NCBI RefSeq assembly: GCF_000195755.1
Contig: NC_002937.3
Span: 990,001 to 1,022,000 of the forward strand
DNA from: Nitratidesulfovibrio vulgaris str. Hildenborough
Lineage (GTDB): Bacteria; Desulfobacterota; Desulfovibrionia; Desulfovibrionales; Desulfovibrionaceae
Direction of reading: 5' to 3'
Length of the DNA stretch: 32,000 nt
Shown here one piece after another: positions 7,434-18,986 of this stretch. The number at the start of each line of letters is the position of its first letter. Positions within the stretch are counted from its first letter, which is position 1. The position numbers were made by a program, and so were the translations under genes. Under the pieces are notes generated by a model. It was not told the origin of the DNA, searched no databases, and saw only the letters and a list, made by a program, of their open reading frames with translations.

Positions 7434-7480
7434 CCCGGCGCACAGGCAGTCGATGCCGCGTGTGCCGGGTTTCTTTCTTC
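7434..7480 (+). terminator. Putative intrinsic terminator after recJ
   Basis: A 10-bp stem pairs 7434-7443 with 7460-7469 (one G-U). The loop is 16 nt and is followed by TTTCTTTCTTC. The element lies in the convergent recJ/lipA gap. Confidence 0.55.
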
Positions 7481-8375
7481 AGGCAGGTTCCGTGCGGAGG
7501 GTGCACAGGGCGTTATAGGCGCTTTCGGCGTTGTAGCTGCTACGCACCAGCGGTGCGGAGAACACGAAGGGAATGCCCATGCCCCGGCCACACGCGGCGA
7601 AGCTTTCGAAAGTATCAGGATGCACGTAGCGTTCGACGGGGGGATGCTGGCGCGAAGGGCGCATGTACTGCCCGATGGTGACGATGTCACAGCCGCAATC
7701 GGCGAGGTCGGCGAGAACCCCCTCGACCTCTGTGTCATTCTCGCCAAGGCCGACCATGAGTCCACTCTTGGCCACGCCACCTGCAGCCTTCACACGTCGC
7801 AGCAGTTCGAGGCTTTGCCTGTAGTCGGCCTGCGGGCGGATGCGGGCGTAGTGTGCGGGGGGGGTCTCCACATTGTGGTTCACGATATGCGGTGCAGCCG
7901 CCATGACAGTGCGCAAGGCTGCATGGTCGCCCCTGAAGTCGGGAATGAGGACTTCGACCGTGGCGGCGGGCAACGCTGCGCGAAGCCGTGTGATGGTGGC
8001 GGCGAAGTGTGCCGCCCCGCCATCGTCGAGGTCGTCGCGCGTCACGGACGTGACGACCACATGCCGCAGGGCGAGTCGTGCCGCAGCCTCGGCGACGCGC
8101 CGGGGTTCATCGGGGTCTGGCGGGGACACATGGCCCGGCGTGATGTTGCAGAACGCGCAGTTGCGGGTACAGACGTTGCCGAGGATGAGGAAGGTGGCCG
8201 TGCCCGACGAGAAGCACTCGAACATGTTCGGGCACTTGGCGCTGTTGCATACGGTGTTCAGCCCGAGCCCTTCGACCAGTGCGCGGGTGTCGGCAAAGGT
8301 GTGGCTACAGGGCAGCTTCACCCGCAGCCACGGCGGGATGCGTAAAGATGGCGAGGAATTGTCGGGTGAGGACAT
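7479..8375 (-). CDS. lipA: Lipoyl synthase
   Basis: Auxiliary-cluster motif [12 protein letters not shown] and radical-SAM motif [14 protein letters not shown] lies 6 nt upstream of ATG 8375. Confidence 0.95.
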
Positions 8376-8961
8376 CCTTGACCTCCTGCATGGTGACTGA
8401 GTCGTCGTCCAGTTCGCGGTGGAGTGATGTGGCCTCCGCGTCGGGAAGGCCGCAGAGCGTGATCAGATTGAAGAGGGACAGGTCGCGCCCCACGTTGAGG
8501 GCGAGACCGTGGTAGGTCGTCCAGCGGCGCACGGCGACGCCGATGGAGCAGATCTTGCGGTTGTCGATCCACACACCCGGGCGTCCCTCATGCCGTGAGG
8601 CCTCAAGGCCGAAGGTGTGAAGGGTTCGCAACACGACTTCTTCGAGGTCATGGAAGAAGCTGCGTAGTCCCCCCGGTCGTCTTTCGATGCGGAAGACCGG
8701 ATAGGCAACCAGTTGCCCCGGAAAATGGCAGGTGATGTTGCCACCTCGCGACGACTGGGCGAGTTCGATGCCCCGTTCGGCGAGAAAGCCACGCCCCGCG
8801 TGCAGGTTCTCAATGCCGCCGTTGCGGCCCAGCGTGATGACGGGCGGGTGTTCGACGAGATAGAGGGTGTCTTCGCCCCCTGTCGAAACCTCGCCGAGGC
8901 GGGCCGTCTGCACGGCCTCCGCCTCGGCGTAGGAAAGTGAACCGAGATCAATCGTCAGCAT
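8305..8961 (-). CDS. lipB: Octanoyl-[ACP]:protein N-octanoyltransferase
   Basis: [24 protein letters not shown] and KICSIGV are LipB-family strings. The preferred start is ATG 8961 ([11 protein letters not shown]); the alternative is ATG 8994. The 3' end overlaps lipA by 71 nt. Confidence 0.85.
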
Positions 8962-11887
8962 GGCCTTCGCCGTTACCACCGTTGCCGCCCTCATCGTCGC
9001 GTTTCATGCGTCGGTGAGGAGCACCGGCAGGGCCTTCGCCCTTACGGTGGGGTCTGGGCTGATGCTGCGAGAAGCGAGGCCCGCCGTGCCTGTCGCCGCC
9101 GAAGCCCTCTTTACGGAACGGGGGCTTGCGGTCACCGAAGCCACCCTTGCCACCGTCCCGGTCGCGCTGGGGACCGTTGCCCCCCTCGTCGCGGGGCTTG
9201 CGCCCGAAGCCGGAACCAAGCGGGTCATGCCTGAACGGGGGCTTGCGCACACCTTCGGCATCACCCTCGCGCCTGAAGGCGGGCTTGCGGTCCCTGAACC
9301 CACCTTCGCCGCCGCGGTCACGGTCGTCACGGCCTTCACGGCGGAAGCCGCCCTGCGGCCTGTCGCCGAATTCGCGGGGCTTGCGTCCGAAGTCGTCACC
9401 GTCCCTGCGGAAGGCGGGCTTGCGGTCGAAACCTTCGCCGCCCTCGCGCCTGAAGGCGGGCTTGCGGTCCCTGAACCCACCTTCGCCGCCGCGGTCACGG
9501 TCGTCACGGCCCTCACGGCGGAAGCCGCCTTGCGGCCTGTCGCCGAATTCGCGGGGCTTGCGTCCGAAGTCGTCACCGTCCCTGCGGAAGGCGGGCTTAC
9601 GGTCGAAACCTTCGCCGCCCTCGCGCCTGAAGGCGGGCTTGCGGTCCCTGAACCCACCCTCACCGCCACGGTCACGGTCGTCACGGCCTTCACGGCGGAA
9701 GCCGCCCTGCGGCCTGTCGCCGAATTCGCGGGGCTTGCGTCCGAAGTCGTCACCGTCCCTGCGGAAGGCGGGCTTACGGTCGAAACCTTCGCCACCCTCA
9801 CGCCTGAAGGCGGGCTTGCGGTCCCTGAACCCACCCTCGCCGCCGCGGTCCTCACGGCGGAAGCCGCCCTGCGGCCTGTCGCCGAATTCGCGGGGCTTGC
9901 GCCCGAAGTCGTCACCGTCCCTGCGGAAGGCGGGCTTACGGTCGAAACCTTCGCCGCCCTCGCGCCTGAAGGCGGGCTTGCGGTCCCTGAACCCACCTTC
10001 GCCGCCGCGGTCACGGTCGTCACGACCCTCACGGCGGAAACCGCCCTGCGGCCTGTCGCCGAATTCGCGGGGCTTGCGTCCGAAGTCGTCACCGTCCCTG
10101 CGGAAGGCAGGCTTGCGGTCGAAACCTTCGCCACCCTCACGCCTGAAGGCGGGCTTGCGGTCCCTGAACTCACCCTCGCCTCCGCGGTCACGGTCGTCAC
10201 GGCCCTCACGGCGGAAGCCGCCCTGCGGCCTGTCGCCGAATTCGCGGGGCTTGCGTCCGAAGTCGTCACCGTCCCTGCGGAAGGCGGGCTTACGGTCGAA
10301 CCCTTCGCCACCCTCGCGCCTGAAGGCGGGCTTGCGGTCCCTGAACCCACCCTCGCCGCCGCGGTCACGGTCGTCACGGCCCTCACGGCGGAAGCCGCCC
10401 TGCGGCCTGTCGCCGAATTCGCGGGGCTTGCGTCCGAAGTCGTCACCGTCCCTGCGGAAGGCGGGCTTACGGTCGAACCCTTCGCCACCCTCGCGCCTGA
10501 AGGCGGGCTTGCGGTCCCTGAACCCACCCTCACCGCCACGGTCACGGTCGTCACGGCCTTCACGGCGGAAGCCGCCCTGCGGCCTGTCGCCGAAGCTCCT
10601 GCGTTCGCCGCCTCCGCGCCGGTCGGAGCGTCCTTCGTCGTTGCGGGCGAAGTTCTTGGGAGTTCTCGAAAAGCCGACGCGCTCGCCGTCTGCGAAGGCC
10701 TCGTCATCAGAGCCCTCGGCGTTCGCCGCGTTCGGGGCAAGTCCCTGAACGACACCTTCGTCATCGACCCAACCCGCGAAAAGTCCGCCGGACTTGCCAT
10801 CGGTGCGCGGTTCTTCAGGCCATGCGGCCTTGACCAGCGCGCCGGAGATGAGCGGGCGCGCATCGTACAGCAGGGTCAGGCCTTCTGCGCTGCAACCGTA
10901 GCGTACGGGCTCGCGGCGTCCCGGAATGGGGAAGACGGCAGAGATGACACGCACCATGTCTCCTGCGGGCGGGGTGGTGGCGTGACTCAGGAACACGAAG
11001 CTGAGGCTCGCGGTGTCGCGTTCGAAGCCCGCTTCACGAGAAATGTCAGTGAGCCACTGCGGCGCGTCGTGCACGCTGAAGGTGAAGTGACACCAGCTCG
11101 ACCTTTTGGCGGCGAGCATGGGGCATTCATCATGATGCGGGCAGGGCGCTTCGGGCGCGAGTCCGTTCTCGATGGCTGCCTGACGGAGCATGGTCACCAG
11201 CTTGCCGCCAAGGCGGGACCCCGGTTCGACGAACAGAGCCTTGCCGCCGGGGGCGAGACTGTCGCGGAGTGCCTCGGCCACTTCGAAGAGCCTGTCTTCG
11301 AGCAGCTGGTCGGCGCGGGGTTGCAGTTCGTTAAGGACGTTGCCGCCCATGACGAGGATGTTCTTGCCATAGTTCTCGCGCAGGGCGTTCTCGACGGTGC
11401 CCCGCAGCGTGTGCAGCGTCCAAGGGCATTCTTCGCCCGCAATCTTGCGGAACAGGGCGCGTCCGACATCAAGCACGTGGGGCGAGATGTCGCCGCAGGT
11501 GAGCGTCAACGCGACAGTGCGCAATTCGGGGCGCGCAATCCACAGGGCGATGGGCAGGGTGAAGGGGCCGCTGCCCACGTCCAGCACATGCCCCCCGGCG
11601 CATTGTTCGGGGGTGGGCAGGTCGAGCGAGGGTAGCAGGCGGCCCAGCCGGAACACGTTCCAAGGCAGGAAGTGCCGAACATAGGCCGAGAAGAGGCGGG
11701 GCGAGGCCCAGTACGATTCCGAGAGATTGCCGCGCTCGGAGGTGAGCGAAGCCGAAAGTTCCTGTATGGCGTTGGGCAGGTCGCGGCGATGCGCGCTGCG
11801 CAGCGGCATGACGGCGTCGATGGCTTCGGGCAGGGCGTCCATCACCTTGCGAAGCTCGGCATCGAGCGGTTTGAAGAGTCTGTTCAT
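8948..11887 (-). CDS. Rsm22/METTL17-like SAM-dependent methyltransferase fused to a long Arg/Gly/Asp/Phe-rich tandem-repeat tail
   Basis: The N-terminal ~430 aa carry the SAM-binding loop VLDVGSGPF and the Rsm22-type CPHHDECP...WCHF motif. The C-terminal ~520 aa are repeats. ATG 11887 is preceded by GGAG with a 5-nt spacer. The track ORF extends upstream to 11986. Confidence 0.8.
9240..10595 (-). repeat. In-frame tandem repeat, 177-bp unit (59 aa), about 7.6 copies, one copy with a 15-bp deletion
   Basis: GCCTGAAGGCGGGCTTGCGG recurs at 9271, 9448, 9625, 9802, 9964, 10141, 10318 and 10495. The spacing is 177 nt, with one 162-nt interval. Copies 9271-9447 and 9448-9624 differ at 3 of 177 positions by hand alignment. 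Confidence 0.95.
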
Positions 11888-11898
11888 GGAAACTCCGT

Positions 11899-13530
11899 TC
11901 AGAAGTGGAAATGCATGTGCCGCAGGAAAGCGGCGGAAAAGTCGGGCGCAGCCGTCAGGTCGACGACAGTGCAGCCTTCGCGCCATGTGTTCAGGGTGTC
12001 GCGCAACGGGGGCGAGGTGAGCAGAAGTTCGGCCCCCCTGAGGGATGTGTTGCCCACCGCGCGCGTCCTTCCACCCGAACCGGGCGGGATGAAGCCGAGA
12101 CCTTCGAGGTCGGCGGGCAGCGCGTGCTGTCCCAATGCCCCTGCGAGGTGGATGCCCGAAAGGGCGTGTGAAGGCATCTGGGCCGTGGCGAGCAGGCGTT
12201 CGAATGCCAGCGAGAAGGCCGCCTTCACTTTGAGTATCTCTTCGATGTCTCTCGCAGCGAGGTAGAGGCCTCGCGCGAGTGGTAGACAGGGTTCGCCCCG
12301 GTGGCTGACGATGGAACGGGCCATACGTGCCGCCAGTGGGGAGGAGGGAGATTGGATGAAACGCCCGTCCACGTCAAGCAGTCCGGCACGCAGAAGGGCG
12401 TGTACGAGAGAAATATATCCCGTTCCGCTGATGCCGTCGGCCTCGCCGCCGTCAAGGACGTAGGGGACGAGCCCGCCGGGAGTGAGGGTGAAGGAGGTTA
12501 TGGCCCCCCTCTGCGCCACGGTGCCGAACGTGAGGCCGATGCCTTCAAGCGCGGGGCCGAGGGCTACGCTGGTGACAAGGGTGCGCTCAGGGGACAGCGC
12601 CAGCACGAACTCCCCGTTGGTGCCAAGGTCGGCCAGCACGAAGGGGAAGGCGGGGGCATGGTCGGTGAGCACTGCAAGGTAGCCCGCCGAAAGGTCGCCT
12701 CCTACGAACGGGGCGGGCAGGGGAGGAATCCATGCGGGCGGCAGCCCCGGCAAAGCCAGGGCGGTCCCCCCTCGCATCTCGAGACGGTAGGGCGCGGAAG
12801 CCAGCCCTTCGACGCTTTCATCGGCGAGGATGGCTGTCATGGCCGTGTTGCCCGCCACGCAGAGTTCCTCGACCCGGCTTTCGTATCCACAGGCGGTGGT
12901 TGGCTCGTCTCCTGAACCTGCCGGCGGCACAGCGTCGGCGGTTGCTGGCGTACCCTCCACATCGGCGACGATGCGTCGCAACGCCTGCAGCACCAACTCG
13001 CGCAGCCTGCCGCGTCCCTTGTCCGAACGTGCCATCGCTATGCGCGACATGACGTCGCTTCCCGCCCCCATTTGCGGGTTGGTTTCACTGCCCTGTGCGG
13101 CGACCGTGCCGTCGGGGGCAAGCAGACTCCATTGCAGTGAGGTCGTACCTAGGTCGACGGCGAGGCGGAACGGCCCGGGGTGTTTCGGGCGTGATGCATG
13201 CCGGTGAGGCATGACCGGGAGAGGCACATGCACCACCATGCCGTGGGCAGGCGCATGGCGACAGGCAAGCCGCCAGCCTGCGGAGATGTCTTCGGCGGAG
13301 AAGAACTCTCGGTCGTCTTCATGCGGTGCAGGTGCGGCTTCAGTGATGCGTACCCGGCAGCGACCGCAGCGTGCCAGCCCGGAGCATAGCGGGGGCGAGG
13401 CAAGTCCTGCATCCACCCATATCAGCCGGGCGAGAGTCGACGTCTCGCCGAGGGTCTGTCTGATGGAACGGTCGGTTGCATCGATGATGGTGCAAGATGT
13501 CACTGGCGTTGTCTCCGGATGGGGCTGCAT
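11899..13530 (-). CDS. DUF4445 / ASKHA-domain protein with N-terminal 2Fe-2S ferredoxin-like domain (RACo-like reductive activase family)
   Basis: Ferredoxin-like Cys pattern CSGLARCGRCRV...LACR. ASKHA phosphate-binding motifs AVDLGTTS and LADLGTNGE. The stop lies 11 nt upstream of the methyltransferase ATG. Confidence 0.75.
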   Translation of the reverse strand: MQPHPETTPVTSCTIIDATDRSIRQTLGETSTLARLIWVDAGLASPPLCSGLARCGRCRVRITEAAPAPHEDDREFFSAEDISAGWRLACRHAPAHGMVVHVPLPVMPHRHASRPKHPGPFRLAVDLGTTSLQWSLLAPDGTVAAQGSETNPQMGAGSDVMSRIAMARSDKGRGRLRELVLQALRRIVADVEGTPATADAVPPAGSGDEPTTACGYESRVEELCVAGNTAMTAILADESVEGLASAPYRLEMRGGTALALPGLPPAWIPPLPAPFVGGDLSAGYLAVLTDHAPAFPFVLADLGTNGEFVLALSPERTLVTSVALGPALEGIGLTFGTVAQRGAITSFTLTPGGLVPYVLDGGEADGISGTGYISLVHALLRAGLLDVDGRFIQSPSSPLAARMARSIVSHRGEPCLPLARGLYLAARDIEEILKVKAAFSLAFERLLATAQMPSHALSGIHLAGALGQHALPADLEGLGFIPPGSGGRTRAVGNTSLRGAELLLTSPPLRDTLNTWREGCTVVDLTAAPDFSAAFLRHMHFHF

Positions 13531-17870: not shown

Positions 17871-18608
17871 TTACCCCATGCTCGCGGCAAGAAGCACGGT
17901 GCCCTCGCATCCCGCGATGCATGCTCCCATGAAGTCACCGTTGATGCCGTCCTCGCGGCGCGCAAGGTGCGCCAGCGCCGTGACGATGGCACCGCATATG
18001 GCGATGGTCGTCACGGTCGTGATGGCGGGTGTCGTCAGCAGTAACGCGAGCATTCCGCATGTCGCGGCTACACCGATGGCTATCCTGTCTGCACCGGCAC
18101 AGGTCAGCCTTCCAAGTGTCGAGCGGCTGCCGGGGGGGACCAGCGCAGCAAGGATGACACATGCCCCGCGTCCGACAATAGGGGCGGCGATGAGAACCCC
18201 GAGCCTGCCAGATATGAAGATTTCATGGGCCCCGATGTATTGGCCGCCGAAGCCGAGCAGTAGCCCCATCACCCCGAATGCCCCGATGCGGCTGTCCTTG
18301 AGGATGTCCCAGAAGCGTTCGCCTGTGGCTGAGCTGCCCCATGCGTCGGCAAGGTCGGCGACTCCGTCCCAGTGCAGCCCACGTGTGACCCACAGGTTGA
18401 TGAGAACATAGAGCCATGCCTGAATGGCGGGATGGCTGGCGGCAAGCCCTAGCGCAAAGGGCAGCCAGCATGCGCCCCCGACGACGAGCCCCGCCAGGGG
18501 AAACCAGCGCACGGCAGCCGCCATGTCGTCGGCTGTCGCGACACGCGCCGGTACGAGTCGGGTAAGAAAGCCACAGGCAAGCAGGGCATGGTGAAGGAAC
18601 GTAGGCAT
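17871..18608 (-). CDS. cobS: Adenosylcobinamide-GDP ribazoletransferase (cobalamin synthase)
   Basis: GFLTRLP-type start (ACGFLTRLVP), WFPLAGLVVG, RGLHWDGVADLADA and DFMGA. Start ATG 18608 gives 245 aa. The 101-aa S/T/P-rich upstream extension in the track ORF is not CobS-like. Confidence 0.85.
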   Translation of the reverse strand: MPTFLHHALLACGFLTRLVPARVATADDMAAAVRWFPLAGLVVGGACWLPFALGLAASHPAIQAWLYVLINLWVTRGLHWDGVADLADAWGSSATGERFWDILKDSRIGAFGVMGLLLGFGGQYIGAHEIFISGRLGVLIAAPIVGRGACVILAALVPPGSRSTLGRLTCAGADRIAIGVAATCGMLALLLTTPAITTVTTIAICGAIVTALAHLARREDGINGDFMGACIAGCEGTVLLAASMG

Positions 18609-18635
18609 AGGCTGACTCGTGTGAGGTTGCGGTGA

Positions 18636-18706
18636 GGGGCTGGTGGCTTGGTTGTATCGGGGGCTGGTGCTTGGTCGTATCGGAGGGCTGGTGGCTGAGG
18701 TCGTCT
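18636..18706 (-). repeat. Three imperfect tandem copies of a 23-25 nt unit in the cobS leader
   Basis: Plus-strand units are GGGGCTGGTGGCTTGGTTGTATC, GGGGGCTGGTGCTTGGTCGTATC and GGAGGGCTGGTGGCTGAGGTCGTCT. On the transcribed minus strand the segment has 35 C and 11 G out of 71 nt. Confidence 0.85.
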
Positions 18707-18986
18707 GGCTTATGCTCATCGAAGTGTGGGCGTGCTCTTTCTGCCAGACCATGGATGGGACGAAGGCGCAATGCCATTCCATTTCGAAAGGTGTTTCAGT
18801 GGTGAAGAGGGTGGGGCGGTCGAGGCGCCACGTCGGCCTCGAATCCACGAGCATTCCACCTCTTGCACTCGAGTGCGAGACCTTATGGCACCCCCATGGA
18901 CGCCCTGCCATACGTTCGGTTCAGGATATGGTGTTCGCCCCATTGTCATGGCGGGCATCCACAAGTCTGGCGCGGGGCAGGGTGTG

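Follow-up and report, generated by a model that had tools for sequence, protein, structure and literature searches.

The question raised by this locus is why a bacterial protein of the Rsm22/METTL17 family should carry a C-terminal tail of roughly six hundred residues built from near-identical tandem repeats. The gene lies on the minus strand of a 32,000-nucleotide stretch of the genome of Nitratidesulfovibrio (Desulfovibrio) vulgaris Hildenborough (NC_002937.3, positions 990,001 to 1,022,000), hereafter the window, in whose coordinates all positions are given. The protein was an exact match to AAS95387.1 / WP_010938206.1 / UniProt Q72DM2, which is named "small ribosomal subunit Rsm22 family protein" by NCBI and "conserved domain protein" by UniProt. 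Long intrinsically disordered regions are uncommon in bacteria, and to our knowledge no bacterial member of the Rsm22 family has been characterised. The answer that we favour, with moderate confidence, is that the tail is a multivalent, sequence-nonspecific RNA tether on a cytoplasmic Rsm22/METTL17-family protein.

The repeat array was analyzed using Tandem Repeats Finder, which gave one array at 9262-10594 with a period of 177 bp, 7.6 copies, 94% matches and a score of 2379. It was the sole large array in the window, the other array being one small 24-bp repeat. A first-pass annotation of this DNA had described a 177-bp unit in about 7.6 head-to-tail copies, and the result was in agreement with it; the copy starts at 9271, 9448, 9625, 9802, 9964, 10141, 10318 and 10495 were all in register. 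The copy at 9802-9963 was 162 bp long owing to an in-frame 15-bp deletion that removes GRDDR, and the copies at 9271 and 9448 differed at exactly 3 of 177 positions, both precisely as annotated. Every pair of full copies showed 2-9 differences, and the eight units were all distinct in DNA. The whole array was contained in a minus-strand open reading frame (ORF) at 8948-11986 (1012 aa). The start of the Rsm22-like gene is most likely residue 34 of this ORF (MNRLF, coordinate 11887), giving 979 aa, since every homologue, like the public gene call, starts there. Translation also confirmed the annotated 8 occurrences of a 12-residue core motif of the 59-aa unit, the internal sub-repeats, and the degenerate tail that follows the array. 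Units 1-7 were identical in protein apart from one G to E change and the 54-aa unit without GRDDR, and unit 8 matched the others for 36 residues before diverging into a degenerate tail of similar flavour. The 59-aa unit was itself composed of modules like G-F-x-R-K-P-x-F-R-R-(E/D)-G, with 23 occurrences of FRR[E/D], 25 of RKP and 15 of KPAFRR.

The gene, as defined by the ORF, the public gene call and the homologue starts, occupies 8948..11887 on the minus strand (979 aa plus stop), and all of its parts are read from that strand. The folded module (residues 1-385; 10733..11887) comprises an N-terminal helical region, a class I S-adenosylmethionine (SAM) methyltransferase Rossmann fold, and a C-terminal beta domain of the oligonucleotide/oligosaccharide-binding (OB)-like type. 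Within it, a cysteine-cluster motif (A-P-C249-P-H-H-D-E-C255-P ... W-C266-H-F, residues 247-268) is encoded at 11084..11149, and the codon of C332 (R-Y-G-C-S), the fourth invariant cysteine, which comes from the C-terminal beta domain, is at 10892..10894. The module is followed by a non-repetitive linker (residues 386-431; 10595..10732), assigned as disordered from its composition and a predicted local distance difference test score (pLDDT) of <50-70. The tandem array proper (residues 432-875; 9263..10594) consists of units 1-7 and the first 36 residues of unit 8. In protein register, units 1-4 are at 10418-10594, 10241-10417, 10064-10240 and 9887-10063, and units 5-8 at 9725-9886 (54 aa), 9548-9724, 9371-9547 and 9194-9370. 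The degenerate end of the tail (residues 876-979; 8951..9262) contains the diverged half of unit 8, further G-F-G-(D/R)... modules, and an acidic G/N/E/D tip.

The variants among the units were used to examine selection and reading frame. The eight units in the window had 15 variant sites, 14 synonymous and 1 non-synonymous, compared with a neutral expectation of 31% synonymous (P=9e-7). When the units of strain DP4 and of the genome CP116246 were added to those of Hildenborough, 25 synonymous and 4 non-synonymous distinct variants were obtained (P=1.4e-9). Moreover, the length variants of the array were all in frame (-5, +1, -3 and -14 aa). Judged by these substitution patterns, the tail is translated in the gene frame and is under purifying selection. 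In a six-frame control, the variants were synonymous at 14 of 15 sites in the gene frame and at 13 of 15 in the wobble-coincident antisense frame, which is the + strand ORF 9126-10748. The selection-like signature of this antisense ORF arises because its wobble positions coincide with those of the real frame. Antisense coding was rejected, since this ORF is confined to the array and the same frame is interrupted by 14 stops in the tail of the closest other species (L003) and by 5 in that of another relative (L063). Spurious long ORFs ran through the array at 8960-11635 (+), 9126-10748 (+) and 9004-10863 (-), with 891, 540 and 619 aa, respectively, which is because the GC-rich repeat has no stop codons. 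The remaining long + strand ORFs are shadows of the kind usual in high-GC DNA.

The copy number was compared among strains, as the first-pass annotation had predicted it to be polymorphic. In the finished genomes, the Hildenborough protein had 979 aa and 8 units (one of 54 aa), that of DP4 had 982 aa and 8 units with +1 and -3 aa variants, and that of CP116246 had 911 aa and 7 units, one of which was 45 aa long. Polymorphism was thus found, with firm evidence limited to the difference between 7 and 8 units and to small in-frame indels. The first and last units had common silent-site signatures across strains, and interior units shared signatures in shifted or mosaic order (Hild_4 = DP4_3 = CP116246_3; Hild_7 = DP4_6). 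These shared signatures indicate that the array is older than the strains and has evolved by unit gain, loss and conversion. Furthermore, units differed at up to 9 of 177 sites (5%), whereas between Hildenborough and DP4 the catalytic part had 7 differences in 1290 sites (0.5%) and the C-terminal end none in 312 nt. The duplication was therefore much older than the strain split, and the recent expansion that the earlier annotation had read from the near-identity of the copies was not supported: a very recent one was rejected on the silent-site divergence between units compared with that between strains, and on the first, last and several interior units that the strains have in common. Its alternative, ongoing gene conversion, stood in part: the mosaic units point to some conversion or shuffling, but purifying selection also accounts for the near-identity of the units at the protein level.

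Versions with 1-3 units were found only in short-read, metagenome or 454-era assemblies. Strain RCH1 ("complete" genome CP002297, L087 1501-3393) had a protein of 630 aa with 2 units, which were exactly Hildenborough unit 1 and unit 8. Assemblies in ENA gave versions of 630, 689 and 616 aa, and a Logan assembly gave 568 aa with 1 unit, exactly DP4 unit 8, on a contig 99.2-99.5% identical to the window. The short versions look like assembly collapse; a clean recombinational deletion gives the same pattern, which in RCH1, a near-identical strain, would amount to six units. In addition, breaks within the array were found in P0058 and P0056 (one metagenome-assembled genome) and in the JGI loci L084 (five units, then the contig end) and L083 (starting inside a unit). 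The collapsed or broken arrays in other assemblies were what the first-pass annotation had warned of for short reads. Two truncated variants in the cluster of P0001, P0061 and P0063 (334 and 380 aa), ran into unrelated residues after about residue 320 or 375; both lie on short contigs, and the truncation is probably an artefact of a frameshift or of the contig end. The array of the window is no assembly duplication, because all units are distinct and the identical 979-aa protein was found in two independent assemblies. A mis-assembled array was rejected on these grounds and on the 982- and 911-aa versions in two further complete genomes. Public assemblies of one species thus report 1-8 units, and database lengths of 568-982 aa should not be taken as biology without long reads.

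The identity of the N-terminal part was investigated by profile and structure comparison. Pfam PF09243 (Rsm22) matched residues 127-349 of the 1012-aa ORF with E=3.5e-16 and 59.9 bits (cut-off 23), and the NCBIfam models gave no match to the protein. A profile of 25 relatives searched against solved structures found human METTL17 (1.1e-13), yeast Rsm22 (2.8e-11) and T. brucei mt-SAF1 (1.2e-6), in an alignment extending through the APCPH...CP motif. AlphaFold2 with a 52-sequence alignment gave a pLDDT of 90.4 and a predicted template-modelling (TM) score of 0.89 for residues 1 to about 385, and the confidence collapsed past about 390. When the PDB was searched with Foldseek, ranks 1-8 were all METTL17/Rsm22 chains from mitoribosome assembly intermediates (E 2.7e-14 to 3.7e-11; TM 0.50-0.58 over 372-452 columns), and the next matches were generic methyltransferases with TM of at most 0.36. 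Moreover, C249, C255, C266, C332 and H267 were invariant in 52 of 52 family members. The assignment of residues 1-385 to the Rsm22/METTL17 family, as proposed earlier, is well supported by Pfam, the profile search of solved structures, the fold and the invariant cysteines.

The four cysteines correspond to a signature described for Rsm22, A-P-C-(P)-H-x-x-x-C-P with a further Cys (PMC8171064), and to the four residues shown to ligate [4Fe-4S] in human METTL17 (PMC11046306; PMC9892005); C332 matches the OB-domain cysteine of Tb-Rsm22/METTL17. They form a predicted metal site, probably for a [4Fe-4S] cluster. D103, G105, G107, D133 and E187 were invariant or nearly so in the 52 members, the D103-x-G105-x-G107 motif being invariant. 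The position of the third Gly of SAM motif I was occupied by F in the N. vulgaris protein (G-S-G-P-F), by L in 41 of 52 members and by G in only 5 of 52. Yeast Rsm22, in which the SAM motif is disrupted, does not bind SAM (PMC9892005; PMC11046306). In mitochondria, METTL17/Rsm22 sits on immature small subunits at the head-body interface, h31 and the mRNA channel (PMC9892005; PMC11046306). Compared with METTL17, Rsm22 and mt-SAF1 (PF09243), the N. vulgaris protein has the same profile, fold, A-P-C-(P)-H-x3-C-P motif and third Cys, with the fourth Cys likewise from the beta domain. Eukaryotic members also bear lineage-specific extensions, and the C-terminal one in yeast contacts the mRNA channel. 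The N. vulgaris protein differs in being bacterial and cytoplasmic, in being paired with a RACo-like gene, in its SAM motif of G-S-G-P-F instead of G-x-G-x-G, and in its repeat tail, which by far exceeds every described extension of the family in length and regularity.

The tail (residues 386-979, 594 aa) was of unusual composition, with R 0.23, K 0.05, D 0.14, E 0.08, G 0.22, P 0.07, F 0.10 and ILVM 0.007. The fractions for R, D+E (0.22), G and F were in line with the first-pass estimate of about one quarter Arg, one quarter Asp/Glu and one fifth Gly. The fraction of charged residues was 0.50, the net charge +34 (net charge per residue, NCPR, +0.06; approximate kappa 0.11), and the folded part had a net charge of -7 compared with +34 for the tail. 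Aromatic residues occurred once per 8.9 +/- 3.8 positions. AlphaFold2 on the tail alone, a single-sequence prediction, gave a pLDDT of 37 and no secondary structure, and the tail is predicted to be an intrinsically disordered, well-mixed polyampholyte, nearly devoid of aliphatic residues.

Two likenesses had been proposed for this composition. The first, to eukaryotic RGG/FG-type regions, held for the composition but not for formal motifs: under the rule of two or three RGG or RG with gaps of 0-4 residues, the 594-aa tail had 0 matches each for di-RGG, tri-RGG, di-RG and tri-RG, and formal membership of the RGG/RG class was rejected. RGG itself occurred 9 times in isolation, about 59 residues apart. 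The tail thus resembles the RGG/RG regions of FUS, hnRNP, LAF-1 and DDX4-type proteins in overall Arg/Gly/aromatic composition and predicted disorder, and differs from them in lacking di- and tri-RGG/RG, in having one RGG per 59 residues, in its high acidic content, and in its recurrent words FRR[E/D], RKP and KPAFRR. The second likeness, to the basic tails of bacterial RNA helicases, was supported by direct comparison with E. coli DeaD, whose second intrinsically disordered region (IDR2, 554-629) has R 0.25, G 0.28, NCPR +0.09 and kappa of about 0.13.

The closest chemical analogue of the tail is the C-terminal disordered region of E. coli DeaD/CsdA. Like DeaD/CsdA IDR1 and IDR2 and the extensions of RhlE1 and RhlE2, it is rich in Arg, Gly and acidic residues, net-positive and well mixed, with interspersed Phe, and theirs is likewise borne by a ribosome- or RNA-remodelling enzyme. 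In addition, the F-(G/S)-G-E-R-R-E-G-G-R modules of DeaD resemble G-G-F-R-R-E-G-R in the tail. As a predicted-disordered, net-positive, Arg/Gly-rich terminal region on an enzyme of RNA-directed type, the tail belongs with the DeaD/CsdA- and RhlE-type extensions, which are a functional class and not a homology family. It shows no detectable homology to them and differs in being about 8 times longer than DeaD IDR2, in its exact 59-aa repeats, in a doubled aromatic density and a higher acidic content, and in its partner domain, a methyltransferase fold where theirs is a helicase. CsdA IDR2 is reported to be the module chiefly responsible for the condensation of a ribosome-biogenesis compartment (bioRxiv 10.64898/2026.09.17.752289). 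The disordered C-terminal extensions of P. aeruginosa RhlE increased RNA affinity 7- to 65-fold and phase-separated with RNA (PMC11260450).

Extensions were then compared across 80 related loci, mostly from Desulfovibrionaceae and not including N. vulgaris itself, with tail length counted beyond the conserved KSGA end. The tails had a median of 59 aa and a range of 1-579 aa. A C-tail of at least 40 aa alone was found in 49 loci, a basic N-terminal extension alone in 12, both in 3 and neither in 16, and the two kinds of extension behaved as alternatives (Fisher P=1e-4). The N-terminal counts rest on longest-ORF starts, with which the gene-called P0005, P0011, P0028, P0041 and P0045 agree. Basic disordered extensions, N- or C-terminal, are thus a trait of the family. 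Since the extension may be at either end, its function would be independent of the end, which fits nonspecific RNA binding.

Very long tails are rare in the family, and lengths were 370-623 aa among the best 120 of 477 strong relatives. Two other species had independently long tails. L003 (5150-6736), at 68% identity, had a 529-aa tail of degenerate R/D/G/P/F/Y modules such as ERRPFNxD and RPRFDG, including a segment of about 40 aa repeated twice. L063 (5113-6439) had a 442-aa tail with five copies of a 10-aa RGPRSDEAKx repeat. No significant alignment was obtained between the N. vulgaris and L003 tails (best E=0.12), which leaves it unproven that the two long tails descend from one ancestor; in the best segment, "GDRPQ(G/R)GF" of unit 8 stood opposite the equivalent position in L003. 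The unit sequence is species-specific. The composition and length of the tail were conserved where the sequence diverges, which is typical of functional disordered regions.

When 258 tail residues were searched exhaustively with HMMER against 1.84 billion representative proteins, the sole matches were the two N. vulgaris clusters and, weakly, P0064 (E=1.7e-4), and the unit thus had no detectable homologues. A tail-only search of a clustered database of 5.8 billion proteins gave no match, not even the protein itself, probably owing to word-index or composition filtering. P0064 is an unannotated metagenomic protein (L089 2355-4274) with about 14 tandem copies of ERKPYVKREGGFSG. It has in common with the N. 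vulgaris sub-repeat a short module, (D/E)-R-K-P-x-aromatic/V-(R/K)-R-E-G-G...F, and differs in its N-terminal domain, which is unrelated and has no Pfam/NCBIfam match, in its period of 14 instead of 59 aa, and in being Lys/Tyr-rich instead of Arg/Phe-rich. Its gene sits between mutL and cmk/cold-shock genes. The likeness may reflect a short module that recurs in bacterial disordered tails, whether by convergence or by common origin. One possibility is that the recurrence of (D/E)RKPx(F/Y)(R/K)R(E/D)GG in this unrelated protein reflects a specific short linear motif and not generic composition. No other ORF with the RKPx[FY][RK] module or a similar polyampholyte window was found outside the gene in about 700 kb of Desulfovibrionaceae DNA and the whole window. 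Nothing specific came from a general literature search on bacterial disordered regions that are built of repeats and act in ribosome biogenesis.

The reading of the tail as an RNA tether draws on four lines of evidence, namely purifying selection together with the retention of 7-8 units in three finished genomes, the family-wide basic extensions, the likeness to DeaD/CsdA and RhlE, and the yeast precedent, in which an extension from the same C-terminal domain of Rsm22 fills the mRNA channel of the small subunit (PMC11046306). The tail would have arisen by hierarchical duplication, from a module of about 14 aa (G-F-x-R-K-P-x-F-R-R-(E/D)-G) to the 59-aa unit and then to the array of eight. It would bind nascent 16S rRNA or pre-30S particles through many nonspecific contacts, so that the folded factor would act at its target with higher avidity and at a higher local concentration. 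Given the high valency of the tail, RNA-dependent condensation might follow. RNA binding, ribosome association, catalytic activity, a metal cluster and condensation are all properties that we infer for the protein.

The genes around the Rsm22-like gene were in the order fliM, 148-aa ORF, RACo-like, Rsm22-like, lipB, lipA, recJ. The locus tag of the Rsm22-like gene should be DVU0907, because fliM is DVU0910 (PMC10102598 supplement) and DVU0908 is "iron-sulfur cluster binding protein" (PMC13043603), taken together with this order. The upstream neighbour, the RACo-like gene DVU0908 (11899..13530, minus strand), encodes a 2Fe-2S ferredoxin domain and an ASKHA ATPase (Pfam Fer2, Raco_middle, RACo_C_ter), and its stop codon lies 11 nt upstream of the Rsm22-like start. 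Most of the 80 related loci had such a gene directly before the Rsm22-like one, with a usual gap of about 10 nt. Downstream, the start of lipB (octanoyltransferase; 8305..8994, minus strand; Pfam LplA-B_cat) overlaps the Rsm22-like 3' end (8948-8994) by 47 nt if counted from its first ATG and by 14 nt if counted from the start called in DP4 and CP116246. It is followed by lipA (7479-8375; Pfam Radical_SAM/LIAS_N). No promoter- or terminator-like site was found between the RACo-like, Rsm22-like, lipB and lipA genes. This layout suggests a RACo-Rsm22-lipB-lipA operon with translational coupling, for which the missing promoter and terminator sites are weak support, and the RACo-like gene is probably co-transcribed with the Rsm22-like gene. 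The pairing suggests a redox or activation partnership between the RACo-like protein and the predicted four-cysteine site. DVU0908 was strongly down-regulated under sulfamethoxazole in a proteomics study (PMC13043603). Elsewhere in the window, the small 24-bp tandem repeat (2.8 copies, 86% matches; 18636-18704) sits upstream of, or in the 5' ORF extension of, a cobS-like gene (ORF 17871-18911, minus strand).

Several points weigh against the tether reading. Since 16 of the 80 relatives lack an extension altogether, and tails may be as short as 1 aa or as long as 579 aa, the core function of the family does not require a long tail. The conserved RACo-like partner hints at redox chemistry, which a tether does not explain. 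Single-sequence AlphaFold2 is weak evidence for disorder of the tail, and its NCPR is just +0.06 with a low kappa; such chains tend toward expanded coils and not toward strong self-association. The third Gly of the SAM motif is missing, as in the SAM-free yeast Rsm22, and the predicted catalysis is uncertain. Association of the bacterial protein with 30S particles would be an extrapolation from mitochondria. In the literature searched, and in the parts available of supplements on D. vulgaris proteomics and random barcode transposon-site sequencing, there was no mention of or value for DVU0907, Q72DM2 or Rsm22.

The valency of the repeats might instead serve chiefly for RNA-dependent phase separation, nucleating a ribosome-biogenesis compartment with a threshold set by copy number; we consider this possible but unlikely. 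The Arg residues and evenly spaced aromatics resemble a sticker-and-spacer layout in a tail about 8 times the length of DeaD IDR2, CsdA IDR2 and the RhlE extensions condense with RNA, and identical repeats, kept at 7-8 units across strains, provide a defined multivalency. However, the well-mixed charges (kappa about 0.1) and 22% acidic residues disfavour homotypic coacervation, and most family members have tails of about 60 aa or none.

It is improbable that the proximal tail threads into the 30S mRNA channel and blocks premature mRNA binding during assembly, with the remaining array dispensable. This would be in agreement with the yeast extension, which comes from the homologous C-terminal domain and fills the channel (PMC11046306), and with the occlusion of the channel by METTL17/Rsm22 in human and yeast intermediates (PMC9892005). 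But tens of residues would suffice for a plug, not about 590, and selection acts on all units. Moreover, 12 of 80 relatives carry their basic extension at the N-terminus instead, a misfit with one fixed geometric role.

The chance is similarly small that replication slippage or unequal crossing-over inflated a tolerated tail whose sequence and length are irrelevant. The species-specific unit, the family tail lengths of 1-579 aa and the assemblies with 1-3 units are what such neutral expansion would produce, but those short versions come from collapse-prone assemblies, and the ratio of 25 synonymous to 4 non-synonymous variants (P=1.4e-9) indicates a constrained amino-acid sequence. In addition, silent sites are about 10 times more diverged between units than between strains, yet all three finished genomes have kept 7-8 copies of this recombinogenic unit. 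The tail of the sister species L003, though unlike in sequence, is comparable in length and chemistry.

Slightly less probable still, and in our view very unlikely, is an RNA-independent role as an entropic bristle or protective polyampholyte, which would keep an oxygen-labile Fe-S enzyme soluble or act as a chaperone-like stress shield. A charged fraction of 0.50 with low kappa does predict an expanded, highly soluble coil, the folded part carries -7 and the tail +34, and METTL17 precipitates in air (PMC11046306). On the other hand, the excess of Arg (0.23) over Lys (0.05) and the regular spacing of Phe are features that regions binding nucleic acids typically show, rather than solubilising ones, and the extensions of the family are consistently basic. 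An artefact, in which the array is mis-assembled or the true frame is the long antisense + strand ORF, can practically be dismissed: repeats are collapse-prone, and the + strand ORFs 8960-11635 and 9126-10748 are long, with 13 of 15 variants synonymous in the antisense frame, but the units are distinct, the protein matches in independent assemblies, the antisense frame is stopped in L003 (14) and L063 (5), and the sense frame joins a conserved domain and a conserved C-terminus without interruption.

The assignment of the N-terminal part is not new, as the gene is already annotated publicly by its Pfam family. A tandem-repeat disordered tail of about 590 residues under purifying selection on a bacterial METTL17 homologue appears to be undescribed. 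A bolder reading is that the protein scaffolds a nucleolus-like, RNA-dependent 30S-biogenesis condensate in an anaerobe, in which the repeat number tunes the threshold and the [4Fe-4S] site, possibly serviced by the RACo-like protein, couples assembly to redox or iron. We regard this as speculative and decidedly unlikely; if true, it would give bacteria an equivalent of the "Fe-S checkpoint for translation" of mitochondria. With its eight near-identical 59-residue repeats, the tail offers a valency series that is natural and open to engineering, in a model organism amenable to genetics, and such a series could show how disordered length and valency affect RNA binding, ribosome assembly and condensates in a bacterium. 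Furthermore, the bacterial METTL17/Rsm22 branch, with its four-cysteine site and RACo-like partner, could reveal the ancestral function of the mitochondrial Fe-S translation checkpoint.

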